Positions 6,912-60,506 of a stretch of 64,000 nt of DNA are shown in pieces. Positions within the stretch are counted from its first letter, which is position 1, and every line of letters starts with the position of its first letter. Position numbers and translations under genes: made by a program. Source of the stretch: an uncultured Clostridium sp. (GTDB lineage Bacteria; Bacillota_I; Bacilli_A; Acholeplasmatales; Anaeroplasmataceae); assembly GCA_946540005.1 (NCBI GenBank), contig CAMNHY010000002.1:2780-66779 (forward strand), read 5' to 3'. Under the pieces are notes generated by a model, which saw nothing but the letters and a program-made list of their open reading frames with translations, was not told the DNA's origin and ran no database searches.

Positions 6912-6947
6912 ATAATAACATAATAGATGCCACAAACCTGCAACAAA
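6912..6947 (-). promoter_or_regulatory. Direct-repeat promoter element, site 1 (TTTGTTGC-AGG-TTTGTGGC, then 11 nt, then TATTAT)
   Basis: Repeat core at 6929..6947 and -10 at 6912..6917, with a TG extension. The architecture matches the six other sites. Confidence 0.75.
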
Positions 6948-35575: not shown

Positions 35576-35611
35576 ATTTTATCAATTGTAGTGCCACAAA
35601 CCTGCAACAGA
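35576..35611 (-). promoter_or_regulatory. Direct-repeat promoter element, site 4 (TCTGTTGC-AGG-TTTGTGGC, then 11 nt, then TAAAAT); drives the T4SS operon
   Basis: Repeat core at 35593..35611 and -10 at 35576..35581, preceded by TGA. Confidence 0.7.
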
Positions 35612-35664: not shown

Positions 35665-38600
35665 CTATTTTAATATTTCTCTTATTTTAGACTTATATAC
35701 ATCTTTTTCTTCTCTGTAAATAATCTTAAAATTCATTCTAAGAAGTTTTAATTTATTATTCTTTTTTCCAATTTTAAATACTCTCTTAGATTTTAAATTA
35801 ACTAATGTCCATTTATTGAATATAAAGAACATTGAAATATATGCAATAATTAGAACAAGTACTAAAATAACTACAATTATAGTAACTAATCTAGTAATAA
35901 TACTGATATTATTAGTTTTTTCTAATTCACTATATTTATTTTCGCTTTGTTCAAGCTTATCTAAATTAATTACTAGTCCTTTTTCAGAATCATCTAATGC
36001 ATCATAAGCCTTTCTTGCCTCTTTAATTTGAGATTTAGTTAAATCATTTAAAGAAGTTACTTCGCCTATCGCATTTATTTGTCTATATACAACTCCAACC
36101 TCATTATAGATTTTTTCTGCTGAAGTTAATATAACTAAATTTTTAACATAAAACTTTTGATTTTGAGTTAAAGCTGAATAAGCATTTTTAGCATTATTAA
36201 TTCTATTTCTTACCTCTTGATTATATTTTACTTCACCAATTAAATTAATTAACTCATCAACTCTATTTGCCTCAGCTACATCATCTAATAATTCTTGATA
36301 TTTTGTCTCAGAAGCTAATAAAACTTGATATGAAGTAACAAATGACTTTTGACTATCAGTTAATGCGACATAAGCTTCTCTAACTTCTAGAATCTTATCA
36401 TTAGACTCAAGTGTAACATTACCAATCGAATTAATTAATTCATCAATAGTTGACGCAATTCTTTTATCTTCAACAAGAGCCGCATATTTTGTTTGGGCTA
36501 ACTCTAAAGTTTCTAATTGAGTTATAAATGATTTTTGTCTATCAGTTAACGCGTCATAAGCTGTTCTTGCAGCATCTATTTTATTTTTAGAAGCTTCATC
36601 TAATTGAACTTCTCCAATTAAATTAATCAATTCATCTGTTTCTAAAGCCCTAGATTTATCTGAAAGAATTAATTCAAAAGTATTCTCATCATCTCTTAAA
36701 GTTTCATAATTTGTAACAAGCTTCTTTTGATCTTCTGTTAATGAATTATAAGCTTGTCTTGCTACCTTAATTTTTTCACTAGATTCAATTGTAACTTCTC
36801 CAATTGAATTAATTTTTTCAATAACGGCAGATGCTAAATTATTATCATTTTGAAGTTCATTATAACGATTTTCTGCATCTGATAATGTCTTATAATTTGA
36901 AACTATATCTTTATATGCATTAGATAAAGATTCATATTTAATTCTTGCGTTATCTATTTTTTCTCTAGATTCAGCACTATACATTACTTCTCCAATTGAA
37001 TTAATTAGAGACATTGTATCATCAATAGATTTAACATCTTCTTTTGCACTATTTAGCGCTTGATTAATATTATCAGTTTCCAAAGTTACATCATCAACTG
37101 TAGATTTTTGATAATCATTAATTTCTTGTGCATTATTTATTGCCTCCATTAATATAGTGGCAACAGGAACATATTTATCTTTTATTGAATTTAGATATTC
37201 ATTAGAAGCGTTTATACTATTTACTAAATCAGTTCTATCTGGCGCATTTATTTTTACTATTATTATTGTTTCTTCGCTACTAGCATAAGATAAATAATGT
37301 TCATTACCAGGGCTTCTAGTATATATTACATACTCACCAATATCTAATCCTTTAGGAATAAATGTTGACCAATATCCACCTTCAAATTTAAATTCAAATA
37401 CTGCATCATCACATTTACTAAAATCAAGTAATTCTTGTTTCTCACCAGTATAATATAAATCTTCATTAGCTTTTGGTAATTGAGGCGTACCTTTTACAAC
37501 GCTTACTGTTTGATGATACTCACATTCATTTAATCCAGCCTTAACTTTATAATAGATTGTATAATCACCTAATTCTTTAAAAGTAGGTGCTTCATCTAAA
37601 TCATAAGTTCCCATTTCTAATCCATATTTAACCTCATAATCACTTGGTTTAAAATTATTATGGAATTGAATGCTATAATCAATATTTCTATATGGAACGC
37701 TTGTATCCTTTGCAGGATAATCTATGATTAAATTATCTCCTTCTTCTATTACTATTTTATTATCGTGAATAACAAATAATTCATTACAATCTTTATCGGC
37801 AGCTGTATAAGCCATTGTAGGATAGTAATTATAAATAGTGCCTCTTCTAATATAATCAAGGCCAATTTTGCTATCTGCAGTTAAAGCGCCACTAAGACTA
37901 AAAATATCCTTTTGACTAGGATGACTAACAGTTATATCAGAAGGTGTGCCATCCTTTAATTTATTATCAAAAATATATAAATTACCTTCTATAAACAATT
38001 TAGCTTCTTCTAAAATAGCTGCCGGAGAACTTCCTGATATATTATCTTTAATAACTGTTTTACCTGAAATAGTTAAAAAATTATTATTTGCACCGTGATA
38101 TACTCCACCAGCCATTCCATCAGCCACATTAGCTATAATATTTACATCTTTTAATGTAATTAAACTATTGTTTCTCTTTACCCATGCATAATAAATAGCT
38201 CCACCGTTGCCTGTCGTACTATTACCAATAATAGTTCCACCATACATTTTTAACTCAGTAGTGCTTCCACTTCTAGAAGTACCAGGCATAAAGATAGCTC
38301 CACCATTAGGACTATCTTTAGCTCCTGTAATATATCCACCTCTAAATGTTAAATAGTCAGATTCAAAACTATCATCAACAATTCCTAAGCCTGTAGTTGA
38401 ATCAATTTTGTATTTATGTTCTAATTTATTACAATCATAAATACAAATATTTCCACCACCAGGAACTTCAATAACATTTTTACCTTCACTATTTAAAATG
38501 ATTCCATGACCATTTAAACATAATTTAGTATCAGTTTTAGGATGCCATGTATCAGTTATAGTGACATCTGATTCTAAATAATAATTACCACTACTTGCAG

Positions 38601-38793
38601 GTAATGAATTGGTATCACTCCACTTAACAAATGTTAATTCATTATGTGTATGAGTCTCTTCTTCATTCTCACCGGAGTTATTATCAATTTCTTCTGCATG
38701 AAGATTAATAGATTGATATTTATTTATATAAATGAATACTCCTAGAAATAAACTAAACATTATTAATATTTTTGAAATAAGTGATTTTTTCAT
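35665..38793 (-). CDS. Large surface protein: signal peptide, Pmp-like beta-helix (GGAI repeats), Ig-like region, six ~57-aa helical repeats, C-terminal TM anchor
   Basis: 1042 aa. GGAIF/GGAIYY/GGVY motifs occur in the N-terminal third. There are 6 repeats of the pattern INSIGEV-x-KI-AR-AY-LT-QK-V-Y-L-E-Y. A hydrophobic anchor lies near the C-terminus. Confidence 0.8.
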   Translation of the reverse strand: MKKSLISKILIMFSLFLGVFIYINKYQSINLHAEEIDNNSGENEEETHTHNELTFVKWSDTNSLPASSGNYYLESDVTITDTWHPKTDTKLCLNGHGIILNSEGKNVIEVPGGGNICIYDCNKLEHKYKIDSTTGLGIVDDSFESDYLTFRGGYITGAKDSPNGGAIFMPGTSRSGSTTELKMYGGTIIGNSTTGNGGAIYYAWVKRNNSLITLKDVNIIANVADGMAGGVYHGANNNFLTISGKTVIKDNISGSSPAAILEEAKLFIEGNLYIFDNKLKDGTPSDITVSHPSQKDIFSLSGALTADSKIGLDYIRRGTIYNYYPTMAYTAADKDCNELFVIHDNKIVIEEGDNLIIDYPAKDTSVPYRNIDYSIQFHNNFKPSDYEVKYGLEMGTYDLDEAPTFKELGDYTIYYKVKAGLNECEYHQTVSVVKGTPQLPKANEDLYYTGEKQELLDFSKCDDAVFEFKFEGGYWSTFIPKGLDIGEYVIYTRSPGNEHYLSYASSEETIIIVKINAPDRTDLVNSINASNEYLNSIKDKYVPVATILMEAINNAQEINDYQKSTVDDVTLETDNINQALNSAKEDVKSIDDTMSLINSIGEVMYSAESREKIDNARIKYESLSNAYKDIVSNYKTLSDAENRYNELQNDNNLASAVIEKINSIGEVTIESSEKIKVARQAYNSLTEDQKKLVTNYETLRDDENTFELILSDKSRALETDELINLIGEVQLDEASKNKIDAARTAYDALTDRQKSFITQLETLELAQTKYAALVEDKRIASTIDELINSIGNVTLESNDKILEVREAYVALTDSQKSFVTSYQVLLASETKYQELLDDVAEANRVDELINLIGEVKYNQEVRNRINNAKNAYSALTQNQKFYVKNLVILTSAEKIYNEVGVVYRQINAIGEVTSLNDLTKSQIKEARKAYDALDDSEKGLVINLDKLEQSENKYSELEKTNNISIITRLVTIIVVILVLVLIIAYISMFFIFNKWTLVNLKSKRVFKIGKKNNKLKLLRMNFKIIYREEKDVYKSKIREILK

Positions 38794-38839: not shown

Positions 38840-38875
38840 ATTCTAGCAAATAGCCTGCAACAAACCTGCAACAAA
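38840..38875 (-). promoter_or_regulatory. Direct-repeat promoter element, site 5 (TTTGTTGC-AGG-TTTGTTGC, then 11 nt, then TAGAAT)
   Basis: Repeat core at 38857..38875 and -10 at 38840..38845, preceded by TGC. Confidence 0.75.
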
Positions 38876-38916: not shown

Positions 38917-40440
38917 TTAAATTGATTGATTTAAATCTTTTTCGTCTTCTACTTCTAAGTCTAGATCAATCTTATTATCTTTTTCTACCAATACGAATTC
39001 TTCAAGATCTTTTTCTTCAACTGCACTTTCTTTAGAAATTCCTAAATCTTTTGGTAAAAGTGCATTAATAGAAGCGTTTATTTGTCCTCTAATTTTCACA
39101 TCATCTTGTTGCATCTCAGAAACTACAGACATTGTGTTTAAAACTAAATTAGTTCTAATTTGTCTTAATTCATCCATGTCTTCTAAGTTCTTACCACTCT
39201 GATTTACATGATGCAAATATTGTTCACCAGCTTCACGAAGATTATCTTTATTTAAATATCCTTCTTTTGCAGGATTAGTATAATCTTTTAAAGCTTGCAT
39301 ATAATTTTGGAATTCTTGTGAAGGCTTTCTAAAGACTCTTGCAATAAATCCACCAGCCATTTCTTTTTCAACATTAAAGATATTATATGTCTTTCCTAAT
39401 TTTTCGCTCATTCTCTTTTGGAATTCAAGGCTATATCTGTTTTGGAAAGCTTTAGATACTTCATTTAATTTTAATATCTCATCCTTACTTCTTTCAACAA
39501 CTTCAACATTAGGTTTATTTGAAATGAAATCCATTAAACTTACTTCTTTTTTCTTTCCAGTTTCTGGATCTGTGTGTACACATTTATATTTTAAGAATAT
39601 ATTCTTGTCGATTTTAAGACCTTTTTCTTCTAATTTCTTACAATAATCAGCTAATGATAAATCATTATCTTTGTCTCCCCTTTGTCTTGAAAGAATACTT
39701 GTAATATTTTGAGGTATTTTAAAACCAAATACTTTTTTAGAATTTCTCATTACTAAATTAGCTTTTTCTTTATCTAAATCAGGTAGGGCGAAGAAATCTA
39801 CTTCTTCACATTCTTTAATTAATGTACCAGAATAATTAATTTTTTGAATTAAACCCTTCATTGATTCTTTAGCCTCTTTAAGTTCTGGTGGTACTCCTAA
39901 AGAATTCATGTAAAATATATCACCAAAGCGATTTGCTTCATGACATAATGCTAAATTATCACGATAAAATTCCATAAGTTTAACTTTATCATTACCTAAA
40001 TCAATTAACTCTTGAGGATTATAATTCATTGCATTTTTAATTCTATTATGAGTAAATTCAACAGGATACTTAGCGTATGATTCTAATAAATTCTTATTAT
40101 ATTCTTTACTTTCAGGAGAACCATCAACCTTTAATAAGAACATTATACTTTCAGCTAAATAATTTTTATCACTTTCAGGCATTTTAATACCTACAGAAGC
40201 TTCATTATATGCGGCTTTATGTTTAGCAGTAAGTTCTTTAATTTCTTGCGCAATACGATATCTTGCGACCATTTCTTCATTATTTAATTTATCCTCTAGT
40301 TGATTATTCACAACATTTTTATTCAATAATGTCAAACCAGTCTCATTAAAAAAGTTATTATATTTAGTTAAATATTCTTCATTTTTAGTTTTAATAATAT
40401 TCTTTTCTTCATCAGTTAATCCTAAATATTTTTTTGGCAT
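38917..40440 (-). CDS. Paralog-family protein B (507 aa), function unknown
   Basis: RBS GGAGG is 9 nt upstream. The protein is collinear with protein A. The C-terminal module is AGGFIARVFRKPSQEFQNYMQAL, followed by an acidic tail (LDLEVEDEKDLNQSI). Confidence 0.88.
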   Translation of the reverse strand: MPKKYLGLTDEEKNIIKTKNEEYLTKYNNFFNETGLTLLNKNVVNNQLEDKLNNEEMVARYRIAQEIKELTAKHKAAYNEASVGIKMPESDKNYLAESIMFLLKVDGSPESKEYNKNLLESYAKYPVEFTHNRIKNAMNYNPQELIDLGNDKVKLMEFYRDNLALCHEANRFGDIFYMNSLGVPPELKEAKESMKGLIQKINYSGTLIKECEEVDFFALPDLDKEKANLVMRNSKKVFGFKIPQNITSILSRQRGDKDNDLSLADYCKKLEEKGLKIDKNIFLKYKCVHTDPETGKKKEVSLMDFISNKPNVEVVERSKDEILKLNEVSKAFQNRYSLEFQKRMSEKLGKTYNIFNVEKEMAGGFIARVFRKPSQEFQNYMQALKDYTNPAKEGYLNKDNLREAGEQYLHHVNQSGKNLEDMDELRQIRTNLVLNTMSVVSEMQQDDVKIRGQINASINALLPKDLGISKESAVEEKDLEEFVLVEKDNKIDLDLEVEDEKDLNQSI

Positions 40441-40468: not shown

Positions 40469-40504
40469 AATATAACATATCGAACGCAACAAACCTGCAA
40501 CAAA
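40469..40504 (-). promoter_or_regulatory. Direct-repeat promoter element, site 6 (TTTGTTGC-AGG-TTTGTTGC, then 11 nt, then TATATT)
   Basis: Repeat core at 40486..40504 and -10 at 40469..40474, preceded by TGT. The core begins only 11 nt after the response-regulator stop codon. Confidence 0.75.
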
Positions 40505-40514
40505 AAAATAATTA

Positions 40515-41291
40515 TTAAAAATCTTTTAATTCTTCACTATCATTAAATAATGCCCATGAATACTGAATCATATATTCTCCTCTATACATTCTGATAGCAT
40601 CAGGATTTCCTTTTTTGTATTCGTATGCATCACAGTCTATTTTAGTAGGGTCTATGAAGCATTCATTATGTCTTTTAATGAAGACATCTTCACATCCTAC
40701 TTCTTTTAATGTATCTTGCAAATCAGCTATTAAATTTCTTAAATAAGATTTATGATCTTCTTCCCATAATATGGCATTAAGTTCATTTATATTAGATGAA
40801 GATCCTTCTCTATCAACAAGATAGGCAAATAATTCTTTTGATTTTTGTCTATGAAATTTTAAAGGAATTCCATCTTTGAAAACTTCAAAATTTCCAAAAC
40901 ATTTGACTTGTAATGGTTTTGTCTTCTTTAGTTCAATATTATATCTTAATCCTTCAATTTCATTTTTAACTTTAACTTCTGTAACTGGTTTCATTACATA
41001 TCCTGATGCATGTAATTTATATGCATCAAGTGCGTAATTATCATATGCAGTAACAAAGATAATATTAACTTGTGGATTTATAGCCTTTAATTTTTTTGCA
41101 AGAATAATGCCATTAATTTCGGGCATTTCTACATCTAGAAATGCAATATCTATTTTCTCATTAATCCTCTCATTATAAGCCTTTTTAGGATTAGTATAAC
41201 AATAATATGTTGCATCCGGCATTATTTTTCTACAAGTTTTTTCTAAACGAATTAATTGTAATTCCTCATCATCAACTAATAAGATTTTCAT
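40515..41291 (-). CDS. Two-component response regulator: receiver domain plus SARP/BTAD-type winged-helix DNA-binding domain
   Basis: I prefer the ATG at 41291 (MKILLVDDEE), with GAGGTG 4 nt upstream; the track start is 41303. Receiver motifs: LLVDDE, FLDVEMP, FVTAY, K in VMKP. The C-terminal part reads VKCFGNFEVFKDGIPLKFHRQKSKELFAYLVDREG...LWEED, typical of SARP-like wHTH domains. Confidence 0.8.
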   Translation of the reverse strand: MKILLVDDEELQLIRLEKTCRKIMPDATYYCYTNPKKAYNERINEKIDIAFLDVEMPEINGIILAKKLKAINPQVNIIFVTAYDNYALDAYKLHASGYVMKPVTEVKVKNEIEGLRYNIELKKTKPLQVKCFGNFEVFKDGIPLKFHRQKSKELFAYLVDREGSSSNINELNAILWEEDHKSYLRNLIADLQDTLKEVGCEDVFIKRHNECFIDPTKIDCDAYEYKKGNPDAIRMYRGEYMIQYSWALFNDSEELKDF

Positions 41292-41299
41292 AAGACACC

Positions 41300-42562
41300 T
41301 CACTTCTTTAATGTAACTGTTATTTTAGTACCAACATTCTTTTTACTAATAATATTTAAATCTCCTTCACACGTATGACTAATACGATAACTTATATTTT
41401 TTAATCCAAAATGTACATTTTCATCAAAATCAATTTCATTTAAATCAAATCCAATACCATCATCTTTTACCTCAATGACATAGCTTGAATCAGTTTCATA
41501 AGTGGTTAATGTAACTGTTCCACCTTCAATTTTTTTCAAAATTCCATGTTTAATAGCATTTTCAACTAGCGGTTGAATTGTTAGAGGTGGAATTGAAAAA
41601 TCTTTTGTGCCTATATCATAAATAATATGTATTCTATCCTTAAATCTCATCTTTTCTAATGAAACATATGTTTCTATATGTTTCAATTCATTTTCAAATG
41701 GAATAAGTCTTGTCTCTGTTAAAGATGATAAGTTTTTTCTTAAATATTCTGTAAAATCATCTAATGACTTTTGAGCCTTATCTGGATCAATACTAATAAG
41801 TGTTGAAATAGCAGATAGTGAATTATATATAAAATGTGGTTGAATTTGAGAAATCATAAGCTTTACATGAGCTTCTTTATTCTTTTCTTCTTGTTTGGAT
41901 AATTCTATGTTTTTTTCAACATTTGCAAAGAAGAATAAAATTTCAACTGTTATAATAATAGATACATAACCTATCGCATATCCACTATATATATTTTGGA
42001 AAATAATAGCTAATACAGGTAGCAAGCAATAAATTATAAATGCTGCCTTTTCTCTTTTTTTAAGTTTTTGAGTAATTGTTGTAACAAGTATTATTACTGA
42101 AAACATTATGAATTCATATCCTTGTGATATGAACATTGTTTTACTTCTTATATATTCCCCATTTTGAGAATAAAAATATATCGATGTTGGAATATTTATA
42201 ATATCTGTTATTACAAATATCGCAAACAAGATATTATTTAATAATGATAATCTTTTATTTAATTGATTAGATAAATTAATATAGCTAACCATATATTTGA
42301 ACAAAATATAGACTTCTATATTGTTCATAATATAAAAGGATGTATAGAAAGCTATTATTAAATCATCACTAGTATAAAAATTTTTAATTATGTTAAAAAT
42401 TAAATAAATTGAAAAATGGATTACATTAAATATCATAAATACTAAAAGCCATTTTTCGTCAGCTCTTTTATTTTTCTTAATTATTAAATTAACAATGTGA
42501 ATTAAAAATATCATTATTCCTATTCCACATATTGTTATTTTTATTCCCGCATTCGCATTCAT
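41300..42562 (-). CDS. Sensor histidine kinase, LytS/YehU (His_kinase PF06580 + HATPase) type, with a multi-TM sensor
   Basis: 420 aa with about 6 N-terminal TM helices. H-box QIQPHFIYNSLSAISTLI, N-box PLVENAIKHG, and G-boxes DDGIGF / GLKN. Confidence 0.85.
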   Translation of the reverse strand: MNANAGIKITICGIGIMIFLIHIVNLIIKKNKRADEKWLLVFMIFNVIHFSIYLIFNIIKNFYTSDDLIIAFYTSFYIMNNIEVYILFKYMVSYINLSNQLNKRLSLLNNILFAIFVITDIINIPTSIYFYSQNGEYIRSKTMFISQGYEFIMFSVIILVTTITQKLKKREKAAFIIYCLLPVLAIIFQNIYSGYAIGYVSIIITVEILFFFANVEKNIELSKQEEKNKEAHVKLMISQIQPHFIYNSLSAISTLISIDPDKAQKSLDDFTEYLRKNLSSLTETRLIPFENELKHIETYVSLEKMRFKDRIHIIYDIGTKDFSIPPLTIQPLVENAIKHGILKKIEGGTVTLTTYETDSSYVIEVKDDGIGFDLNEIDFDENVHFGLKNISYRISHTCEGDLNIISKKNVGTKITVTLKK

Positions 42563-42735
42563 TATTTATCCCCACCTTAATAAATATCTACTTTCTATTT
42601 CTAGTGAATAGTGCATTTCTTAAAGAATGAAATATATATATAATAATTTATTAATACCCATACTCATATTATACACTTTTTTGTCGAAAAAGTGCAACTA
42701 TTATCATTTAAAAAACAGGTAATTCTTGAAACACA

Positions 42736-42785
42736 ACAAAAAAATCCTATAAACTTTTACATTTTTTGTAATTGTTTATAGGATT
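42736..42785 (-). terminator. Rho-independent terminator after the 42792..44555 gene
   Basis: 12-bp perfect stem AATCCTATAAAC / GTTTATAGGATT (42743-42754 / 42774-42785), followed on the minus strand by TTTTTTT. Confidence 0.7.
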
Positions 42786-42791
42786 TATATT

Positions 42792-44555
42792 TTATTCTTC
42801 TTTAAAATCAGCTATTTTTTTAGCTAATAAATCAATCTTATAATAATCAAAATAATCTACATCAATATCTACTTCAAATGCACCCTCATCACCTACATAA
42901 GTTTGTCCTTGTGGTTTAACAACATGCATGTATGAAGAATTAGCAATTATTTGTCCATTTGGTAATACCATACTTCTTAGTACACATTCTCCACCACCAG
43001 CTTTATTACCCATTATTTTTGCAACATTTTGTGCTTGGCAAAAGAAAGGATATGCAGTACCACATGAGAACGCAACAGGGCTTGTTAAAAGATAAAAATT
43101 GAATTTATTTCCATATGAATCTTTTTCATCATATTTTCCATCATTATTTGTATCTACACGTAAAGTATCTTTATATATACTATTTGCTAGATTATCATAG
43201 AAATATTCATATCCATAATTATCTTTAGATAGCAAGGCTATTAACTTACCCATAATTTCGGCATCTCCACCACTATTAATAGACATGTCAATAATTACGT
43301 TTTCTACCCCACCTTTTTTATCTATTTCAGCAAGATTACATTTGATTTTAAAATATGTATCTACTAATGCTAAATCTTCATCTTTTTGTCTTTTCTTATC
43401 TTTAGTTAAATAATCAGATGTATCATCAAATTCATCTAATGTAATCATTGCGGTTTTACCATCAGTTGAATATCTTACACCATTCTTTTCTAATGATAAT
43501 GATTTATATGCACTATTTCTTTCTTTTTTTAATGAATTACCTAAGATTACTCTATCTGCAGACATACTTTGAGGAATTTCCATATCAGAAACTTCTCCCC
43601 AAGGCAAGCTTTCTTTAATTAATACTGTATGATCATCATCAAGACCACTAATTAAACAGCTTAATCCATTAGCTCTATCTTTAGCACTACTACTATTTAA
43701 TAGTTTTGAATAACTAAAAGCTTCAAAATATGTAGACATCTTATCTCCAATTCCCTTTTGAGCTCTTAATCCATAAAAATTATCAAACATGAAATAAAAA
43801 TAATTTTTATTATAATCTATTAAATATTGTGGCATAGTTTCACTAGTATAATTTTTCATTTCTTGATAAGCTGTAGTCTCTTCTAATTTTTCATTTTCAT
43901 ATTTTTGAAGGCTTAAAGCTTTATAATCTGAAAATGATAGAATAGATTTATAATTATAAAAATTTCTATTAGTATGAAGTGGTTGTATAACAGAGTCAAG
44001 CATTGCAAATGGAAAATATGTTTTATCTTTTTCTCTAAAGACTTTAAATCCATATCCTGAATAATTAATATTATATTTCTTTTCTCCGCTTATTAATTCT
44101 ACTTTGTGACTCAATTCTAAACCTGATGATGTTAGATCAGTTGAATCATTAAATGATCTTATTACATCTTCCATTCTTCCATTTACTATAATACTTGATT
44201 TAGCTAAATCAAATTTATAATAAACTTTTGTTTCTTTATTAGAATAAACTAAATCAATATAATCATTTTTATCTGAAAAAGAAGCTTGATTATAAAGTTC
44301 TTCTCCAAGTAAAGCTGAATAACTTACAATATCAATATATGGAATATAATCTTCTCCTTCTATGAATTTAAGTTTTAATTTAGTGTTATCTTTATATGTA
44401 CTATATTTAATTACGTTTTGACTATCTGCACTATAATCTCTTAGAGATATTACACTAACATCTTTTTCAAAAGTTTTAAATCCAGTATTACCTGAACATG
44501 AAATAAGTGCAAAAAGTATTAGTAGTGGCAAAAATATTTTGAATAATTTTTTCAT
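42792..44555 (-). CDS. Lipoprotein, S41 (tail-specific/C-terminal processing) peptidase-like
   Basis: Lipobox LISCSG. The segment VIIDMSINSGGD resembles the S41 LDLRxNxGG block. FSCG and NKAGGG sit where the S41 Ser/Lys dyad blocks would be. The family call is tentative. Confidence 0.45.
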   Translation of the reverse strand: MKKLFKIFLPLLILFALISCSGNTGFKTFEKDVSVISLRDYSADSQNVIKYSTYKDNTKLKLKFIEGEDYIPYIDIVSYSALLGEELYNQASFSDKNDYIDLVYSNKETKVYYKFDLAKSSIIVNGRMEDVIRSFNDSTDLTSSGLELSHKVELISGEKKYNINYSGYGFKVFREKDKTYFPFAMLDSVIQPLHTNRNFYNYKSILSFSDYKALSLQKYENEKLEETTAYQEMKNYTSETMPQYLIDYNKNYFYFMFDNFYGLRAQKGIGDKMSTYFEAFSYSKLLNSSSAKDRANGLSCLISGLDDDHTVLIKESLPWGEVSDMEIPQSMSADRVILGNSLKKERNSAYKSLSLEKNGVRYSTDGKTAMITLDEFDDTSDYLTKDKKRQKDEDLALVDTYFKIKCNLAEIDKKGGVENVIIDMSINSGGDAEIMGKLIALLSKDNYGYEYFYDNLANSIYKDTLRVDTNNDGKYDEKDSYGNKFNFYLLTSPVAFSCGTAYPFFCQAQNVAKIMGNKAGGGECVLRSMVLPNGQIIANSSYMHVVKPQGQTYVGDEGAFEVDIDVDYFDYYKIDLLAKKIADFKEE

Positions 44556-44577: not shown

Positions 44578-44613
44578 ATTATACAAAATAGATTGCCACA
44601 AATTTGCCACAAA
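44578..44613 (-). promoter_or_regulatory. Direct-repeat promoter element, site 7, variant (TTTGTGGC-AAA-TTTGTGGC, then 11 nt, then TATAAT)
   Basis: Repeat core at 44595..44613 and -10 at 44578..44583. The spacing matches sites 1-6, but the 3-nt linker differs (AAA instead of AGG). Confidence 0.7.
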
Positions 44614-49986: not shown

Positions 49987-52900
49987 TTATTTATTAGAAT
50001 TTAAAATACCTTTTAATGTTATTTTTAATTGAGTATAATCTCTTGCGCATTCTCTAGGAATAAACAAAAGCTTAATATTGTGTTTTTCGCACATTTTCTT
50101 CTTATAATTATCTCTTTCAATTACATCTTGTCTACTTCTATGTTCAGGGCCATTTAACTCAATAATGGCTACAATCTTGTTATAATTAAATGCTCTTTCA
50201 TATATAACAAAATCGAAGCTTTGAGTATAATATAATCTATTTATAGTCGTATCATTTTTAAAGACATTTTTCATCTCAACTTCTTGTCTAACATAGCATT
50301 GTGTACTAATAACTGAGAATAGTTGGTCAATAGTCTCTTTAAAATCATTTTCTGATTTTGAAGATATTTCTCTAGTCCCAAGTGCTTCAGATTTAGGAGA
50401 TACATTTGTTACATTACACTGTCCATTAGTCTTAACATAATCAAATAATTCTCTCATATCATCTACACCTTTAGATAATTTTTTAACGGCATTGAGTGAA
50501 CCTAGCACCACTAACTTATCTTTTGATCTAGAGATAGCAACATTTATTAATTCTCTATTATTTTTTAACCATTCATATGTTTTTTCATAAGTGTTTTTTG
50601 TAATGGCTGTAGAAAATAAAATGACATTCTTTTGATCACCTTGGAATGCATGTACCGTACCAACATTTACATTTTGAATACCATTAATTTTTAAATAATG
50701 CTCGATGCAATCTTTTTGATGTACAAATGGAGTTATTACTCCAATATCTTCATTTGGATGTCCTTTTACATATTCAACTATCTTTTGAGCTTCTATGTTA
50801 GATACATTCTTTTGTGGCTCATTATTCTTTTCATCATCAATACTTGTATCTAATAATACTAATGGATTAGCTTCTCTAGATTTACTTCTAAGTTTTAATC
50901 TATTGTTGTAATATTTTTTATTGCAAAACGCAATAATTTTATCATTACAACGGTAGTGATAAGATAATAATGTTTCTTTATTAATAACGTCTATTGTTGC
51001 AAATGTAGTATAAATTGAATTATTAATATAATTATATTCATCAGCTACTCTAAATTTATCCATTAATTTTTTATTAATAGTAGGGTCTAATACCACTACA
51101 GGTCTTAATTGTTGTGGATCTCCAACAAGTACAATTCTTTCGCCACGTAAAATTGAAATTAATGCATTTGCAATATTACATTGTCCTGCCTCATCCATTA
51201 AGACATAATCAAATTGAGTCTTAGGACTTCCTAAATAAGTTGCGCTCATATTTGTTGTAATGATTATTGGGAATATTTCTTGGAAAGCTTTCAAATTAGA
51301 ATCATCAATTAAATAATCTTTAAAAGCTTTAATCCTTCTATTTTTATCATCCTCAGATTCAACTGGCATTTGTAATATATCTCTAAGAGTTGAATATTTA
51401 TTTCTATTAATCTTCTTTAATCTTTGAACAGTATCAAAATGAATAGACATAAATAATCTTCTAAAATCTATATTCATTAATTCCTTAAGCTTATCATCAT
51501 CTACTTCTATATGACCTAATTCATTTAATTCTTTTCTAACTTCTGCAATTTGAGCATCAAGTCTTATCTTCATCCATTCATCTTTAGTCTTTTCAATTAA
51601 TGCGTTTATAGCTTCAATTTTAGATAATAGTTCTTGTTGATGTTCATACTTTTCAAGAAGTTCTGTTAATCCTCTCATGGCAGCTTTACGCTCATTTTTT
51701 ATGTTTTGAATTGCATTCTCGTCAGCTTTTAAACCTGATGCACGCTCAATCATCTCATTAATATAATCTAGCGCTTCATTAATAGATTCAAAATTTCCAA
51801 TTCTAATTGCAGGAAATAATAATGGTACATTTTCTTTATACTTTAAAGATTTAATATCTTCGAATACTCCATCCATTGGAATATTATTGTTAGAAGTAAC
51901 TAAAGCGGTCTTATCGTTATAATAAATAGTTAAAATAAGATTTAATAATGTTTGAGTTTTTCCTGTACCAGGTGGACCTTGTACATATGATGCCGCAGAT
52001 TTCATTGCGCCATCGATTGCGTTTATTTGATCTATATTATATTTATCATCTACTACATATATTGGATAATTAATTTTTCTAACATTCTTAGGATTAGGAT
52101 TCCCAAAGAATGTATCTATAGGTATAGACATAGTTTCGGGATTAGAAATCATCTCTCTAATACCATTAAACTGTTCTCTTATATCGATAATAATATTTTT
52201 TGCTAAATAAACAATATATGGCTTAGAATCTAATATATTCTTATATGGCTTATTAGCATTATTGTTGTATTCTTGAATGATATTATGAATTTTTTGTTCA
52301 TTAGCGTCAAAATTTTCTAAAATGTTTAATGCATCTTCTGGAATAAATTTTGATATAGAATATATATTCTTGCTTTCAGTTTTACTAGAATCAAATGAAA
52401 ATTCCCTATTAATTATTGTATCCTTTGATGGAATTAAACATCTATTTTTAATATCTAATTTTAATTCTCTATATGCAAGTACATAAAGTCCTTTATCTGT
52501 TTCAATTGATAATCTATTCAAAGCTAAAATGGTTTCTATTTTATTATTTTTCTTTTTATCTTTCTTATTCATTAAAGCTAAGGATAATTCTTTAAATTGA
52601 TCTTCAGATAATTGATATTTATCATTTTCTAAAATTGTATCATTATCTATACCCTTAACTAAACCATATTGGCTTTTATATGGAACATTATCTAATTTGA
52701 AGCATTCTTCATAATAATCTAATATATCATCTCTATCCATATTGTATTGCAAGAATGCATAACTTTCAGGATATTTTGCTAAATTATCTAATAATTTTTT
52801 AGGTGTTACATGATATGTACCTTCAATTGCTTCAGCTGACAATATACCAGAATAATATATTTGTCTTCCTTCAGTCGATTCATTATACATAATATTAAAT

Positions 52901-53106
52901 GAATCAATATCAAATAATTCTAATCTATAATTGATATCATTTATACCAACCATAAAAGAAGTGATTTGATCACTCTTATTTTTATATTTAATTTTTAACC
53001 ATAAATTTTGATTTATAGCTTTACTAATCTCTCTAGAAATTGAATTATAATTAATATTTTCACTATCAATTTCTTCATTTGAATCTTTCTCTTTGACTTC
53101 TATCAT
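49987..53106 (-). CDS. SF1 (Upf1/DNA2-like) helicase fused to a C-terminal Vsr/DUF559/DUF2726-type endonuclease fold; Hhe-like defense candidate
   Basis: 1039 aa. Helicase motifs: I VQGPPGTGKTQT, II LMDEAGQC, III LVGDPQQLRPV, IV SYHYRC, V VHAFQGDQKNVILFS, VI INVAISRSKDKLVVLG. The C-terminus reads FDFVIY...VAIIELNGPEHRSRQDVIERDNYKKKMCEKHNIKLLFIP, an (D)-ExxG-H-D-K REase-like pattern. The first ~350 aa are unassigned. Confidence 0.8.
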   Translation of the reverse strand: MIEVKEKDSNEEIDSENINYNSISREISKAINQNLWLKIKYKNKSDQITSFMVGINDINYRLELFDIDSFNIMYNESTEGRQIYYSGILSAEAIEGTYHVTPKKLLDNLAKYPESYAFLQYNMDRDDILDYYEECFKLDNVPYKSQYGLVKGIDNDTILENDKYQLSEDQFKELSLALMNKKDKKKNNKIETILALNRLSIETDKGLYVLAYRELKLDIKNRCLIPSKDTIINREFSFDSSKTESKNIYSISKFIPEDALNILENFDANEQKIHNIIQEYNNNANKPYKNILDSKPYIVYLAKNIIIDIREQFNGIREMISNPETMSIPIDTFFGNPNPKNVRKINYPIYVVDDKYNIDQINAIDGAMKSAASYVQGPPGTGKTQTLLNLILTIYYNDKTALVTSNNNIPMDGVFEDIKSLKYKENVPLLFPAIRIGNFESINEALDYINEMIERASGLKADENAIQNIKNERKAAMRGLTELLEKYEHQQELLSKIEAINALIEKTKDEWMKIRLDAQIAEVRKELNELGHIEVDDDKLKELMNIDFRRLFMSIHFDTVQRLKKINRNKYSTLRDILQMPVESEDDKNRRIKAFKDYLIDDSNLKAFQEIFPIIITTNMSATYLGSPKTQFDYVLMDEAGQCNIANALISILRGERIVLVGDPQQLRPVVVLDPTINKKLMDKFRVADEYNYINNSIYTTFATIDVINKETLLSYHYRCNDKIIAFCNKKYYNNRLKLRSKSREANPLVLLDTSIDDEKNNEPQKNVSNIEAQKIVEYVKGHPNEDIGVITPFVHQKDCIEHYLKINGIQNVNVGTVHAFQGDQKNVILFSTAITKNTYEKTYEWLKNNRELINVAISRSKDKLVVLGSLNAVKKLSKGVDDMRELFDYVKTNGQCNVTNVSPKSEALGTREISSKSENDFKETIDQLFSVISTQCYVRQEVEMKNVFKNDTTINRLYYTQSFDFVIYERAFNYNKIVAIIELNGPEHRSRQDVIERDNYKKKMCEKHNIKLLFIPRECARDYTQLKITLKGILNSNK

Positions 53107-53402: not shown

Positions 53403-54836
53403 TTATTTTAATAAGAATTTATTACTATAACCAACTTTACCATTAAATAGTCTAGTAATTTTATCTAAGTCTTTATTTTCAGCAAAATAATTTGGATGAT
53501 TTATTACGCAATTTTTAACCGGATTTGCTAATAAATCTGTAAAATCATCATTATTTAAATAAAGTTTAGTGCATTGCACAAGACACGAACCATATCCATA
53601 AGGCTTACCATGTCCTATCTTTTGAAAATGATTTGAATCATTTCCTAATTCTATTGAAAAGATAAGTTTATCTAATTCTTCTTTAGTTAGATTTTCAAAA
53701 TAAATCTTACCATTAAAAATTACATTACTTTCATCAGATATATATTCAAAATAACCTACAACATTATCATTATTTTTAGCAACTTTACCATTGTAAGATT
53801 TAAAATTTAAATAATACTTTCTTCCAGCTAAACCTGGATTATCATCAAACTGATTAATAATATAATTTTTACCATTTTCAGGATGAGGATTTAAAGTAAC
53901 TAATTCGGTATAATCTTTTTTAACTTTACTATTAATTGGGGCTAAGAAATCAGTAAATCTTACTCTTGAAGATAGTGATGATTCGTTTGAAATATATCCA
54001 AATAGACTACATGCTGGGCATAAAGCGTTATCTGCTGTACATTTCAAGGAATCTCCAATTAAATCATTTAGACTATATTTTAGTTCTTCACGTGAAATAG
54101 ATAAATATATTTTTTTATCTCTCTTTGTATAATATGCAGGAATCCAAAAATGATTTTTTTCTTTTAATAAATTATATAAGTGCAAATTTTGCTCATCTAA
54201 ATTAATTGATTTTTCAAAAAACTTTTGTAGTTCTTCCGGTTGTTGGCAATTAATTTTAATAAATTTCCCAACAAAATTAAAGTATTGTATACCATCACTT
54301 TTAGAAAAAACCATCTTATGATTATTATCCTGTGAATAATATATTTGTTTCTTGTGATTGTATGTAAGGTTGGTTTTATATTCAATATAATCCTCGTAGT
54401 GTTTATTTCTTCTTAAATCTATCAATTTATTATCACTTGTACAATCAATTTGAATAGAATTATATACACCTTTTAATTTTCCCTTTTCAAATTCAACCAA
54501 ACATTCATTTGCGTAGATATTATCAAGATGTAAATCATTATTTACTGAGGATAAACATGAATTTGTAATTGTTTCAAAAACATTTCTAACAATACCTTTT
54601 ACTTCAGAACCTGGAATTGCATACTGTGAACCAATTTTAAATAGTTCATATTTTCCATTTATATTATTTCCAGGTATTATAAGTCTTGATTTAGGAGTTA
54701 TTGATGCTTCAATATAACCTGATAATGTACCTTTTGTATATTGACTTCTAATTACTTTCTTTAAAGGAATAAAATCATATGGATTAGTATTCTCTTGAGG
54801 TCTTTTAAATATCCTATTATTGTTTGCATATCTCAT
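53403..54836 (-). CDS. Type III RAMP protein (Cas7-like with a large insertion and CxxC element; Csm5/Cmr6/Csx10-type not resolvable by eye)
   Basis: 477 aa. RAMP hallmarks: AIPGSEVKGIVRNVFE, CPACSLFG, and the G-rich loop IGHGKPYGYGSC. RBS AGGGAGG precedes the start. Confidence 0.7.
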   Translation of the reverse strand: MRYANNNRIFKRPQENTNPYDFIPLKKVIRSQYTKGTLSGYIEASITPKSRLIIPGNNINGKYELFKIGSQYAIPGSEVKGIVRNVFETITNSCLSSVNNDLHLDNIYANECLVEFEKGKLKGVYNSIQIDCTSDNKLIDLRRNKHYEDYIEYKTNLTYNHKKQIYYSQDNNHKMVFSKSDGIQYFNFVGKFIKINCQQPEELQKFFEKSINLDEQNLHLYNLLKEKNHFWIPAYYTKRDKKIYLSISREELKYSLNDLIGDSLKCTADNALCPACSLFGYISNESSLSSRVRFTDFLAPINSKVKKDYTELVTLNPHPENGKNYIINQFDDNPGLAGRKYYLNFKSYNGKVAKNNDNVVGYFEYISDESNVIFNGKIYFENLTKEELDKLIFSIELGNDSNHFQKIGHGKPYGYGSCLVQCTKLYLNNDDFTDLLANPVKNCVINHPNYFAENKDLDKITRLFNGKVGYSNKFLLK

Positions 54837-54840
54837 ACTA

Positions 54841-55146
54841 TTATTCCTCCCTTAGCAAAAAAGGTGCAGTAGAAGTTATATATAAAATACCATCCGAATT
54901 AAAATTATAATAATTCCTCATGATATATTTATTTATACCTGAATCATTCTTAAAGTTTGGATTAATCAAAATTGTTTCATCAAAGAATTTTTCATCTTTG
55001 ACTAAAGATATTAATCCATAACCTTTGACATAATGATAAGACTTTTCACTATCGAAGACATAAGCCTCAAGTACATCTGATTCAAATTCAGATATTTCTT
55101 TGTTAATAAATTCTATTTTATCTAAATAATATATTAAACTTACCAT
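54841..55146 (-). CDS. Small (101 aa) protein of unknown function embedded in the type III effector operon
   Basis: Strong RBS (AAAGGAGG, 6-nt spacer). It is separated by only 1-4 nt from both flanking RAMP genes. It is not obviously all-helical, so it does not look like a typical Cas11. Confidence 0.65.
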   Translation of the reverse strand: MVSLIYYLDKIEFINKEISEFESDVLEAYVFDSEKSYHYVKGYGLISLVKDEKFFDETILINPNFKNDSGINKYIMRNYYNFNSDGILYITSTAPFLLREE

Positions 55147-55147
55147 A

Positions 55148-56317
55148 TTATGCCTCCTTTAATGAACTAATTAATTCATTTATTTCAACACCAATAAGAG
55201 ATATATCCCCAATATTTTCAAATATTCCTCTTCCAATTGATGCTTCTCCACCTAGATTTACTAATCCAGCGCCAATATCTCTAAGTGCAAGATAATACAA
55301 TGCTGCAATAACTTTATTGCCGCCTCTAATTCTTACACTCAATGTTCCTATAGAGTTTTCCGTAGGTACAAATACTTTTTCAGTAATTAGTGCCCCATCT
55401 ATTACAGCCCCACTAAAATGATCAATCTTATTACGCGTAATTATCTCATTTTTTCCATCTAAATATAATTCATCAACAACCGTTTTCTTAATTTCATCTT
55501 TTAAAGAATCTAAGTCTATATTCTTTAGTTTTGGCGCATACACATCAATGATTCTATGCTGTAATACACCATTAATTGATGTTCCAGGAACTAAAGCCCT
55601 ATTATTATTTCCCATCAATTGAGAATAATCATAGTCTAGAATCTCGCTATATTCTCTAACGATTAGTGGACTAATAAGCTTTACTTTTAAACTTAATAAA
55701 ATATCACCATCAGTTATTAAATTACTATTAATTTGATTAATCAAATCATTTTGATTTAATTCTTCTCCACAGAAATTCATATAGTCATGATAATCTTTAA
55801 TTTCCTTGAAGTATAAATGTGTAATCTTTTGTATACCATAACCACGATTTTGCTTATAACCTAATCTAAATAAACCAGATTGGATATTATTAGCTACATC
55901 AATAATAGCTTCTTGAACATCTATAAGATTATTATTTACATCATATTCAATAAAGAATGACCACTCTTGATTATCTAAAATGACCTCTGTGTCATATTTA
56001 GCTCCCTTTACAGTTCTTTTATTACTATCTAATTGAATACCATCTCTTGTAGATTCTTTTACATCAGCTGTAAATATACCATCAGAAATAAATAATCTAG
56101 ATTCATCTTTAATCTCTTTAGCATCTGTAACAATACCGAATACATTTTTACTATATTTACTCTTAGAAAAGAATGAACCAGCAATTGAGGATGCAGGAAT
56201 AAAAGGAGTATTATCAGAATATCTAATAATATCATGATCAGTATTAGATGAATAAGCTGCTCCAATTGATAATGTTGACTTATTAGTAAGTACAAATCTA
56301 TATATTAGTTTATGCAT
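55148..56317 (-). CDS. Type III double-RAMP protein (Cas7-Cas7 fusion)
   Basis: I prefer the ATG at 56317 (MHKLIYRF), with AGGAAGGA about 8 nt upstream; the track start is 56326. There are two RAMP modules. The first has FIPASSIAGSFF with G-loop LGYKQNRGYG. The second has LVPGTSINGVLQHR with G-loop LGGEASIGRGIFE. Confidence 0.75.
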   Translation of the reverse strand: MHKLIYRFVLTNKSTLSIGAAYSSNTDHDIIRYSDNTPFIPASSIAGSFFSKSKYSKNVFGIVTDAKEIKDESRLFISDGIFTADVKESTRDGIQLDSNKRTVKGAKYDTEVILDNQEWSFFIEYDVNNNLIDVQEAIIDVANNIQSGLFRLGYKQNRGYGIQKITHLYFKEIKDYHDYMNFCGEELNQNDLINQINSNLITDGDILLSLKVKLISPLIVREYSEILDYDYSQLMGNNNRALVPGTSINGVLQHRIIDVYAPKLKNIDLDSLKDEIKKTVVDELYLDGKNEIITRNKIDHFSGAVIDGALITEKVFVPTENSIGTLSVRIRGGNKVIAALYYLALRDIGAGLVNLGGEASIGRGIFENIGDISLIGVEINELISSLKEA

Positions 56318-58247
56318 TATCTTCATCCTTCCTTTCTCTCTTGCTATACTTATATAATGTAAATAATTCTCTAACAGCTCTTATCTTTTCTAAATCAGTA
56401 AATTTAGAGATACTATTTTCAAAAGACTTTAATATTTCATTTATTTTTCCTTTTAATGATTCTTTCTTAATAAGTTCAATATTTGATTTAAATGAATTAG
56501 GGCCCTCATATTTAGTAATTAATTTATCGCTCGACAATGAAATTATCTTAGATATTTCAGTCATCCCTAGATCAATATTAGAATTTTGTATAAAGAAATT
56601 ATAGCTAGCTTCTAAAATTCTAACTTCTCTACTTTTTATATTATTTGGAGTAGAACTAACTTTAACTTCTTTATTTATCGCATCTTCTAGATTATTTAAA
56701 TCTACATTAAATATTGTAAACTCACCAAATCCTTTAAACAAATCACACGATATAGCATTAACTTTTGTTAAAGATTTAAACAAAATATATGATCCCGGTG
56801 TAACAACTGTTTCAATATTTCTTGGTAAATTCCTTAACATATTGTATCCACCAATATTTTTGAAATTAATTGAAAAAGAATTAACATCATTATTACTAAT
56901 TTGTTTTATTATATCTTGCTGATTTAGTATTGGAAATCCTTCATTTTTAAATAAAGACTCTGATTTAAAAATAACAAGATTACCCATATTATTCTTCTTA
57001 GTTTCAACATATTTTGCACTAATAATACATTTACCATATTGATTATATTTAGATTTACCTAAATATATTTCTTTAGAATTACACTTTGAAAATAATTCAT
57101 CTAAATCTTCTTGTTTACCTGTAATTCTGCATACAAAATGTTGTCCTTTAGTTAATGAGTAGAATTGATAAAATTTACCTAAATCAGTTCTATTTCCGAT
57201 TGTTTTATATAAATGATAATTATATTCAAATTCAGGTTCTATAATTTCAATATTCTTAAAGTCGCCTTTATGTCTTGTTACATATTCTAAAGTCTCTTCT
57301 TTTATATATTTTCCATCAAGGCTTTCTGTTTTACGATTGTTTTGATTTTCAGTTTTAACTAAATTATTAACATATATTGTACTACCGTCTTTATCCTTAT
57401 TTTTGACCCTGCGGATATAAGAAGGTACAGGAAGATATGTATTATAATCTTCGTCAGAAATGTATGCATTACTAAATCTTAATCCTTCATTGTTATTTAA
57501 GAATAGTCTGTCAAAAACTTTTTGATTAAAATTTTTTGTTTTTGCATAAGCATTTGCAAAATATCCATAAATTGTAGAACCCGGAATATAATCTAAACTT
57601 CTATCTTTAATCGCACCATTGATCATAAGATTATCCAAATTTGTGATATGAAGTTCAACTGTAGAAGTTTTCTTTCCAAGAGGTAAAAGCATATGAATCT
57701 TATTATCAATCTCTTGAAGAGTCATTTTAACATAGCCTAATCCTCTGTTTCTATGTACACCTAGATGGTGTACTAATGAAATTGCTTCAATTAGAAATTG
57801 TAAATATTTCTCATCAAATTCAAGAATTGATTCAAATTCAGTACCTTTGTTTACTACGTTAATTGTGCGCAAGGATCCATCTTTAACTTCTCCTGTCGTT
57901 TGGTCAATTGATGTAAATGTTCTTAAAGATACATACTTATCCTTAATAATATTAGAAGGTTCACTTGTATCTTTATGTTTAATAACCGCATCCTTAATGA
58001 TAAGATTTGCAGAGGTTGAAGAATTAGCAATTCCACAAGCTAATTCTTTTCCAAATAAATTATTAAAGTATTCTTGATTATTTATTTCTCTAGCACTGTC
58101 TTTAATTAAGCCTTTAATACGTCTAGCTGGAATATATGGATAACCTAATGAATCTGTGCATACATCTAAATCAACAGCAAGTCCTTTACCAATACCGCTT
58201 GCTATAGCTGCATCACTTTTTAATTCTATAATTAATTTAGCTCTCAT
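56310..58247 (-). CDS. Type III multi-domain RAMP fusion (Cas7-like N-terminal RAMP, second Csx10/Cas5-like RAMP, helical C-terminal tail that may be Cas11-like)
   Basis: About 645 aa. The ATG at 58247 (MRAKLIIEL) follows the cas10 stop by 1 nt; the track start is 58259. RAMP 1 has YIPARRIKGLIKDSAREI, NLFGKE and LGVHRNRGLGYV. RAMP 2 has DYIPGSTIYGYFANAY and LGKSKYNQYGKC. The last ~110 aa look helical and K/E-rich. Confidence 0.7.
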   Translation of the reverse strand: MRAKLIIELKSDAAIASGIGKGLAVDLDVCTDSLGYPYIPARRIKGLIKDSAREINNQEYFNNLFGKELACGIANSSTSANLIIKDAVIKHKDTSEPSNIIKDKYVSLRTFTSIDQTTGEVKDGSLRTINVVNKGTEFESILEFDEKYLQFLIEAISLVHHLGVHRNRGLGYVKMTLQEIDNKIHMLLPLGKKTSTVELHITNLDNLMINGAIKDRSLDYIPGSTIYGYFANAYAKTKNFNQKVFDRLFLNNNEGLRFSNAYISDEDYNTYLPVPSYIRRVKNKDKDGSTIYVNNLVKTENQNNRKTESLDGKYIKEETLEYVTRHKGDFKNIEIIEPEFEYNYHLYKTIGNRTDLGKFYQFYSLTKGQHFVCRITGKQEDLDELFSKCNSKEIYLGKSKYNQYGKCIISAKYVETKKNNMGNLVIFKSESLFKNEGFPILNQQDIIKQISNNDVNSFSINFKNIGGYNMLRNLPRNIETVVTPGSYILFKSLTKVNAISCDLFKGFGEFTIFNVDLNNLEDAINKEVKVSSTPNNIKSREVRILEASYNFFIQNSNIDLGMTEISKIISLSSDKLITKYEGPNSFKSNIELIKKESLKGKINEILKSFENSISKFTDLEKIRAVRELFTLYKYSKRERKDEDNA

Positions 58248-58248
58248 A

Positions 58249-59826: not shown

Positions 59827-59840
59827 TATACTACCTCTTT

Positions 59841-60506
59841 CTATTTCTTTATCTCTATCATACCAAATCCTTGGCTATTTCTATCACCAAGCCCTACATC
59901 TAAAATGCATTTAAGGACTTTAGGATCAGCAATAATTGTTCCCTCTAAATAATAAGCTTCAATAATAATTAAATCCTTAAATTTGGTAAGATATTTCTTT
60001 TCTTTTTCCACATTTAAAATAATTGAGACCTCACGCCCTAATTTATGAGATAAATTTCTATTTATATATTCTAAAAATTTAGGGTCACTTGGCTTATAAT
60101 AAATTGTCTTTTTTTCTTCTGTTGTATGAATTGTAACAGGAGATAACGTTGTAAACTCAATCATTGATGATGTAATACAATCATCAATAACATCAATATC
60201 CGAACAATAAACATTTTGCCTAAAGAATGATAAATGTTTATGTAAAAGACCGGAGGTAATCGATATTAAGAAATTTAAATCATATGTTGATAAATAAAAA
60301 TACATTAAGTTATCAAATACTAAAGTATTCTCAAGTTTCGTTTTTTTTCCAAATAATTCAGAAAAATTAAATACGCTTATTCCCTTTAAGTCGTGATAAT
60401 AAGTACTATTTTTTTCTAGATTATTATAGATAAATCCTTGAATAATATGTTGATATCCAACCGGTATAACTAACTTTTCAAATGTCAGGGTAATTTTTAC
60501 TCTCAT
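59841..60506 (-). CDS. cas6: Cas6 CRISPR RNA endoribonuclease
   Basis: 221 aa with a RAMP fold signature and the C-terminal G-rich loop GLGDRNSQGFGMIEI. It lies between cas2 and cas10. Confidence 0.75.
   Translation of the reverse strand: MRVKITLTFEKLVIPVGYQHIIQGFIYNNLEKNSTYYHDLKGISVFNFSELFGKKTKLENTLVFDNLMYFYLSTYDLNFLISITSGLLHKHLSFFRQNVYCSDIDVIDDCITSSMIEFTTLSPVTIHTTEEKKTIYYKPSDPKFLEYINRNLSHKLGREVSIILNVEKEKKYLTKFKDLIIIEAYYLEGTIIADPKVLKCILDVGLGDRNSQGFGMIEIKK

Follow-up and report, generated by a model that had tools for sequence, protein, structure and literature searches.

The kinase-regulator pair

We analysed a stretch of 64,000 nt (hereafter the window) of contig CAMNHY010000002.1, which derives from an uncultured sheep-rumen mollicute, for the role of two adjacent genes, coding for a sensor histidine kinase and for a response regulator, and for their relation to seven promoters that share a direct repeat. 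The window has a G+C content of about 27% and nearly all of its genes are on the minus strand. The positions of the features are given in Table 1. The open reading frames (ORFs) of the kinase and of the regulator overlap as listed there; the regulator probably starts at the second of the positions indicated, because its relatives begin at MKILLVDD, and its residues are numbered accordingly below.

The kinase matches the Pfam models PF06580 His_kinase (E 9.4e-22) and HATPase_c (E 1.6e-10). A Kyte-Doolittle scan of its first 215 residues revealed six clear hydrophobic segments and a weaker seventh one at residues 67-95; save for that last stretch, the loops between the helices do not exceed 12 residues. 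With loops so short, the protein is without an extracellular sensor domain, as had been proposed in an earlier interpretation made without database searches (the sequence-only reading), which described a sensor of roughly six membrane helices.

The operon formed by the two genes is preceded by a candidate constitutive sigma-A promoter (Table 1), from which, according to a pattern scan, the direct repeat is absent. Further upstream, an A/T-rich hairpin followed by a run of T likely ends the S41-peptidase unit and would insulate the kinase promoter; the terminator consensus scan missed it, its stem having fewer than three G-C pairs. An ordinary promoter of its own, an upstream hairpin and the lack of a repeat together indicate that the kinase-regulator pair is probably made constitutively. 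A half-site-like sequence does exist 5' of the kinase gene, but it is 2 nt off register and has no second repeat, so that autoregulation is not claimed for this genome.

The output domain of the regulator

In the regulator, the receiver matches Response_reg (E 1.3e-18), its best NCBIfam models are BtsR and LytR, and all of the phospho-acceptor residues are kept (D7, D8, D53, T81 and K101). Receivers of the LytR/BtsR type are the usual partners of PF06580 kinases. The last ~140 residues gave no Pfam match, LytTR and AraC included, even at an E-value of 10, and no NCBIfam match either. The regulator thus lacks the LytTR or AraC domain usual for PF06580 systems, a point on which the sequence-only reading was right; the peptide strings which it quoted are also present in the protein.

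The identity of the C-terminal domain was taken from a family profile and from structure models. When this part was used as query against 1.84 billion representative proteins, 2111 relatives were found, mostly of 250-270 amino acids (aa) and of the same build. The Pfam Trans_reg_C model is reached by 28 of 94 diverse relatives, yet not by the regulator itself. Against the PDB, the profile of the domain placed EmbR (E 3.3e-4) and AfsR (E 7e-3) at the top, ahead of the OmpR-type regulators. The AlphaFold confidence (predicted local distance difference test) was 94.2 for the whole regulator and 93.0 for the C-terminal domain, which models as an OmpR/SARP-type winged helix, the outcome that the sequence-only reading had anticipated. 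The best fold matches of the whole regulator are DrrB (E 9e-12), DrrD and VanR, of the OmpR/PhoB family. With the model of the domain, the top six Foldseek matches were all SARPs (AfsR 8hvr and 8k60, EmbR 2ff4 and 2fez; template modelling scores from 0.67 to 0.71, over ~160 columns), whereas the OmpR-type DNA-binding domains aligned over just ~83 columns, with E-values of 0.012 or worse.

Beyond the wing, ~40 residues align with the start of the BTAD domain of AfsR and EmbR. The bulk of BTAD is missing from the regulator as well as from ten longer relatives, and the Pfam BTAD model (PF03704) found no match in the regulator (E 10), in the 94 diverse relatives or in the 10 longer ones. As judged from the profile and the models, the output domain is a SARP-type winged helix, nearer to the SARPs than to the OmpR-type regulators. 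Of the label SARP/BTAD-type winged helix given by the sequence-only reading, the first half therefore stands and the second is overstated, as only a stub of BTAD is left.

Relatives with tandem SARP-like winged helices, either after one receiver or without receiver, were also encountered: P0127 (428 aa), P0122 (418 aa) and P0128 (409 aa). One such protein could span both direct repeats, and the presence of two winged helices behind one receiver, in P0127, fits direct-repeat recognition.

Seven promoters with a direct repeat

The pattern TTGTKGCnnnnTTGTKGC (TTGTTGCnnnnTTGTTGC, with at most 2 mismatches) has 8 matches in the window, all on the minus strand, versus 0.45 expected from shuffled sequences, none of which (0 of 100) reached 8 matches. 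The 8 matches include seven separate sites, each located 5' of a gene or operon (Table 1). The sites are composed of two copies of an 11-bp repeat, of consensus tTGTKGCAnnT, followed by a -10 element. Counting from the first T of the repeat, a TAnnnT hexamer is present at positions 30-35 in all seven, so that the gap between the repeat and the -10 box is fixed at 11 nt; in six of them a TG at positions 27-28 turns the hexamer into an extended -10, TGnTAnnnT. A -35 box was found in none of the seven. Setting the hexamer at -12 to -7 places the 22-bp box at about -41 to -20, compared with -40 to -19 for the afs box of AfsR (PMC10936776); in SARP sites generally, direct repeats of 11-bp period lie near the -10 (PMC10936776, PMC10972967). 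The proposal of the sequence-only reading that seven direct-repeat sites with SARP geometry exist here is borne out by these values.

Table 1. Positions, within the 64,000-nt window, of the two regulatory genes, of the seven repeat promoters and of neighbouring transcription signals
Feature	Position	Strand	Description
Sensor histidine kinase, 420 aa	41300..42562	-	PF06580 His_kinase and HATPase_c after 6-7 membrane helices
Response regulator	40515..41303 as listed, likely start ATG 41291 (258 aa)	-	start as in relatives
Regulator domains	residues 1-120; ~125-215; ~216-258		receiver; SARP-type winged helix (predicted); BTAD stub (~40 aa)
Candidate constitutive sigma-A promoter of the kinase-regulator operon	42668..42697	-	TTGCAC-N18-TATAAT with TG just upstream; read from sequence
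A/T-rich hairpin then T-run	42735..42782	-	likely terminator of the upstream S41-peptidase unit; read from sequence
Site 1	6912..6946	-	direct repeats and -10; serves 499-aa protein (5369-6868)
Site 2	12210..12244	-	direct repeats and -10; serves 864-aa and probably 849-aa protein (7036-12198)
Site 3	17635..17669	-	direct repeats and -10; serves 899-aa and probably 860-aa protein (12278-17584)
Site 4	35576..35610	-	direct repeats and -10; serves type IV secretion operon, 35532 down to 17733
Site 5	38840..38874	-	direct repeats and -10; serves 1042-aa surface protein (35665-38793)
Site 6	40469..40503	-	two 11-bp direct repeats and extended -10 (TGTTATATT); serves 507-aa protein (38917-40440)
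Site 7	44578..44612	-	direct repeats and -10; serves S41-peptidase-like 587-aa protein (42792-44555)

The products encoded behind the seven sites are those of a type IV secretion system (T4SS) operon, six proteins of 499-899 aa, the 1042-aa surface protein and the S41-peptidase-like protein. The T4SS operon, behind site 4, codes for an MBG_3 protein, a VirD4 coupling protein, a 2545-aa protein, a T4SS pilin, the products of two more genes and a VirB4-like ATPase.

Two details of individual sites may be added. The listed start of the 864-aa ORF is 11 nt after the -10 of site 2; the real start is probably an in-frame ATG at ~12174, 24 nt further on, because that ATG is preceded by GGAGGA. At site 5, what looks like a third repeat (38846-38863) shares bases with the TG and the -10 and is probably fortuitous. 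Genuine triple repeats, with the additional copy upstream, are found in two relatives, at loci L006 and L051.

Since the repeat stands where a -35 would be, at a constant spacing from the -10, it might be thought of as the -35-like element of an alternative sigma factor and not as the site of an activator. We consider this extremely improbable. The repeat is duplicated with an 11-bp phasing, and even triplicated at L006 and L051, which no sigma factor requires; the -10 is the standard housekeeping extended -10; and there is no sigma gene within the 41-kb block that the seven promoters would serve.

Site 6 is immediately behind the regulator gene: its first base (40503) is 11 nt from the regulator stop codon (40515-40517), and no terminator-like hairpin was found between the two. 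Coordinates and hairpin scan thus agree with the sequence-only reading, which had noted the same distance and the lack of an intervening terminator. Without a terminator ahead of site 6, read-through transcription at a basal level probably reaches the 507-aa gene as well. One exact contig from a metatranscriptome (40479-40754) crosses from the regulator gene into the repeat; this fits read-through, and DNA carry-over too. The rumen metatranscriptome contigs over the regulator and 507-aa genes have a coverage of 2-5x, which is too sparse to read a transcription start.

Conservation of the regulator-repeat arrangement

The arrangement was compared in 89 loci encoding relatives of the regulator, 80 of them from species-representative genomes; nearly all are rumen metagenome-assembled genomes labelled Acholeplasmatales, Bacilli, Erysipelotrichaceae or similar. 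A homologous kinase adjoins the regulator in 80 of the 89. The repeat was counted, with the pattern TGTK[GA]C-N5-TGTK[GA]C, in the 81 loci where the regulator is at least 60% identical. It was found 70 times, and 42 of these occurrences (in 38 loci) are on the same strand and no more than 260 nt after the regulator stop codon, a zone that represents ~1% of the searched positions (binomial p ~ 6e-66 for the enrichment). Among the 71 unique instances of the repeat, the TAnnnT hexamer is at the unchanged offset in 68 and a -35 box is missing at all; positions outside the search pattern are conserved as well (A8 0.90, T11 0.99, A19 0.82). The co-occurrence of regulator and motif in related genomes, which the sequence-only reading had proposed to look for, is therefore found, the same repeat and -10 following the regulator gene in 38 of 81 loci.

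The genes behind the regulator-adjacent site vary from one locus to the next. They are T4SS operons (MBG_3/VirD4) at L003, L006, L007, L050 and L072, giant, 1042-aa-like surface proteins of up to 3259 aa at L012, L013, L016, L025, L057 and L059, a homologue of the 507-aa protein at L010, Nif11-like peptides with a double-glycine leader at L038, a radical-SAM/SPASM enzyme at L051, and others too. A constant regulator and site combined with a varying cargo is the pattern expected for a regulator with its own operator. A motif scan of metagenome contigs points in the same direction: it gave 127 matches, 44 with a -10 at the right offset and 83 without, and a regulator homologue is directly upstream of 4 of the 44 promoter-like matches versus none of the 83 others (Fisher p 0.013).

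The repeat is also found ahead of the kinase operon in some relatives (L004/L005, L019, L021, L022, L024 and also L038), which would make that operon autoregulated there. At L019 (8297), L021 (8297), L022 (5322) and L024 (1248), the repeat promoter precedes an ORF of 63-67 aa (…ILVLVLGLVFGLG), coding for a single-pass membrane protein and situated directly 5' of the kinase gene. The arrangement resembles a three-gene operon under its own control, in which the membrane protein might be an accessory component.

A further observation concerns residue 148 of the regulator (window ~40848-40850), located just before helix 1 of the winged helix. Across 38 genomes its identity follows that of base four in the promoter-proximal half-site: Tyr is paired with G (19 of 19) and Arg with T (15 of 19), and switches have occurred in several clades. 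Given the phylogeny this covariation is underpowered, only 2 well-supported independent pairs being available. It is taken as a hint that the regulator is the binder of the repeat, with residue 148 as a candidate specificity determinant.

The regulator as a probable activator of the repeat promoters

From what is shown here, namely which domains are present, where the sites are and how they are laid out, and that regulator and site stay adjacent across species, we infer that the regulator binds the repeats, in a given dimer orientation and in a phosphorylation-dependent way, and that it activates instead of repressing. Our preferred interpretation, which we hold to be probable, is that it is a repeat-binding activator acting from the -35 position like PhoB and AfsR. 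The kinase-regulator operon would be expressed from its own ordinary promoter. The kinase, buried as it is in the membrane, probably responds to a stimulus from within or at the membrane, or else to a ligand that is small or peptidic, and would phosphorylate Asp53 of the regulator. Two phosphorylated copies would then bind head-to-tail on the two 11-bp direct repeats, the box replacing the usual -35 at seven promoters that keep an extended -10 (six of them) or just TAnnnT. Contacts of the regulator with RNA polymerase would recruit the enzyme there, in the manner of PhoB and AfsR, and switch on ~19 genes over 41 kb, namely the T4SS operon and the genes for six large candidate effectors and for surface or secreted proteins.

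Several points besides the limits of the residue 148 data weigh against this interpretation. Beside the regulator, a strict repeat is absent from roughly half of the related loci, and inherited synteny, not functional coupling, could account for part of the adjacency between regulator and site. Moreover, the T4SS and 1094-aa promoters of L004/L005 carry a different repeat, GGACTTWACAAA, located 5' of the 1094-aa gene and of the T4SS operon (L004 10777, 14378 and 14394; likewise in L005); at L004, it is the kinase operon and the genes for 507- and 864-aa-like proteins that have TGTGGC repeats in front. Coupling between the regulator and the T4SS is therefore not universal, and the T4SS link is lineage-specific. 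Finally, BTAD is reduced to a stub, so that activation may work differently from that of SARPs. In AfsR, the BTAD domain contributes RNA polymerase contacts.

The first of these points are also what one would expect if the repeats were bound by another factor encoded elsewhere, for instance another winged-helix protein or an island-specific activator, the pair being in the island by synteny: the strict repeat is then free to be absent near the regulator, and the T4SS operon of L004/L005 to use another one. We nevertheless think this quite unlikely, because the repeat trails the regulator gene in 38 species-level genomes while the cargo changes, because residue 148 covaries with the half-site base, because the architecture of the sites is as expected for the winged-helix fold of the regulator, and because no other DNA-binding regulator was seen within the 41-kb block. 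As to the sequence-only reading, which took the kinase-regulator pair for the likely master regulator of the direct-repeat regulon, its link between regulator and motif is strengthened by the comparative data (38 of 81 loci), while the notion of a T4SS master regulator applies to this genome and, in view of L004/L005, not to the family as a whole.

The direction of the effect calls for a separate consideration. Extended -10 promoters can function without a -35 box, a protein at -41 to -20 could also block sigma region 4, and the BTAD activation domain is mostly missing; the regulator could accordingly be seen as a repressor, or roadblock, over promoters that fire by themselves, with phosphorylation either relieving or imposing the block. 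Against this, head-to-tail winged-helix dimers at the same position are activators in each solved comparison case (PhoB, AfsR; PMC10936776), and a -35 missing at all 71 sites combined with a rigid -10 spacing is the signature of activator-dependent promoters. Repression thus appears distinctly improbable, and activation by the regulator is the reading retained in what follows.

Comparison with known systems

The SARPs (AfsR, ActII-ORF4 and DnrI of Streptomyces, EmbR of Mycobacterium) possess the winged helix closest in sequence and structure to that of the regulator, and the candidate sites have what appears to be a SARP-like geometry, with 11-bp direct repeats overlapping the -35 region near the -10; SARPs bind direct repeats spaced by 11 or 22 bp. 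SARP-type DNA-binding domains are best known from actinomycete antibiotic regulation. Unlike the SARPs, where BTAD is ~150 aa long, the regulator retains ~40 aa of it, without a Pfam BTAD match. On the input side it carries an N-terminal phospho-receiver, where SARPs have NOD/TPR or FHA domains, if any. The hosts (a low-GC rumen mollicute-like Firmicute here, actinomycetes for SARPs), the targets (secretion and surface genes against antibiotic clusters) and the half-sites (TGTKGCA against TCGAGxx) differ as well.

With the OmpR/PhoB family (PhoB, DrrB, DrrD, VanR, KdpE) the regulator shares the combination of a receiver and a winged helix, and its best whole-protein folds, DrrB, DrrD and VanR, belong there. 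The pho-box mechanism of PhoB, in which a tandem dimer on direct repeats replaces the -35, is by analogy the one proposed here. It differs in having a LytR/BtsR-type receiver, a PF06580 instead of a HisKA kinase as partner, and a winged helix that stays below the Pfam Trans_reg_C threshold and bears a conserved, SARP-like C-terminal extension. The third group, that of LytS/LytR, BtsS/BtsR and YesM/YesN, has in common with our pair the PF06580 kinase, the matching receiver type and a polytopic sensor without large external domain, but its output is LytTR or AraC, not a SARP-type winged helix. A PF06580 kinase and a LytR-type receiver with a winged-helix output imply an exchange of the output domain during which kinase and receiver remained paired. 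In sum, the regulator belongs fully to none of the three groups and, by analogy, would work like PhoB and AfsR.

Relatives 72-79% identical to the regulator are named 'two-component SAPR family response regulator' by the Joint Genome Institute (COG3947: receiver, winged helix and BTAD). The ~255-aa subfamily seen here lacks most of BTAD, unlike the catalogued COG3947 architecture. Of the major response-regulator families, COG3947 is the rarest, occurring in 8.4% of 628 species (PMC7046781). A literature search found no characterised member of COG3947, or of the receiver-SARP type, and no binding site or regulon for one.

With the repeat and its regulon, a response-regulator family that is catalogued, uncharacterised and common in rumen Firmicutes would for the first time have a defined DNA motif and a regulon open to testing. 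The proposed mechanism is conventional; the family is large and, here, would control an unusual secretion island. What is joined in the regulator is a predicted SARP-type DNA-binding domain and a LytS-type phosphorelay, with most of the activation domain removed. For organisms that cannot yet be grown, the pair is the likely on-switch of a mollicute-type T4SS and of its candidate effectors, and with a promoter of 35 bp and a regulator of 258 aa the system is small enough for a direct test in vitro or in a laboratory Firmicute.

Peptide genes and other features

In several relatives, the same repeat promoter, adjoining the same kinase and regulator genes, is found in front of genes for Nif11-like-leader peptides of 63-94 aa, with a leader that ends in a double glycine (…ELTDEQLEAVSGG) and a short Cys-containing core. 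Repeat promoters for such peptides or for a radical-SAM/SPASM enzyme are at L032 11339, L038 8272 and 10766, L041 12034, L045 11981, L063 2222 and L076 6116, as well as at L044 12024 and L051 10777. Nif11-like peptides and radical-SAM/SPASM enzymes behind the repeat suggest a modified-peptide, possibly pheromone, circuit tied to the kinase-regulator family. The kinase is like peptide-sensing kinases in its 6-7 membrane helices and in the lack of an external domain. In the 64,000-nt window, genes for Nif11 or double-glycine peptides were not found. That the pair is the receptor arm of a peptide-pheromone circuit widespread in rumen Firmicutes, with T4SS, effectors and adhesins as its output here, is a tentative and unlikely extension of the model. 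If it is true, cells here would deploy contact-dependent secretion as a function of their density or of kin type.

Among the proteins of the island, the 849-aa one (window 7036-9585) weakly matches a PI3/PI4-kinase domain and MLD, a membrane-localisation domain of large toxins, which fits the view of the paralogues as secreted effectors. Just outside the island are a 1039-aa SF1 helicase with DUF2726 (49987-53106) and a type III CRISPR-Cas locus with a Cas10 palm domain, three RAMP proteins, Cas6 and Cas1 (window 53403-62051).

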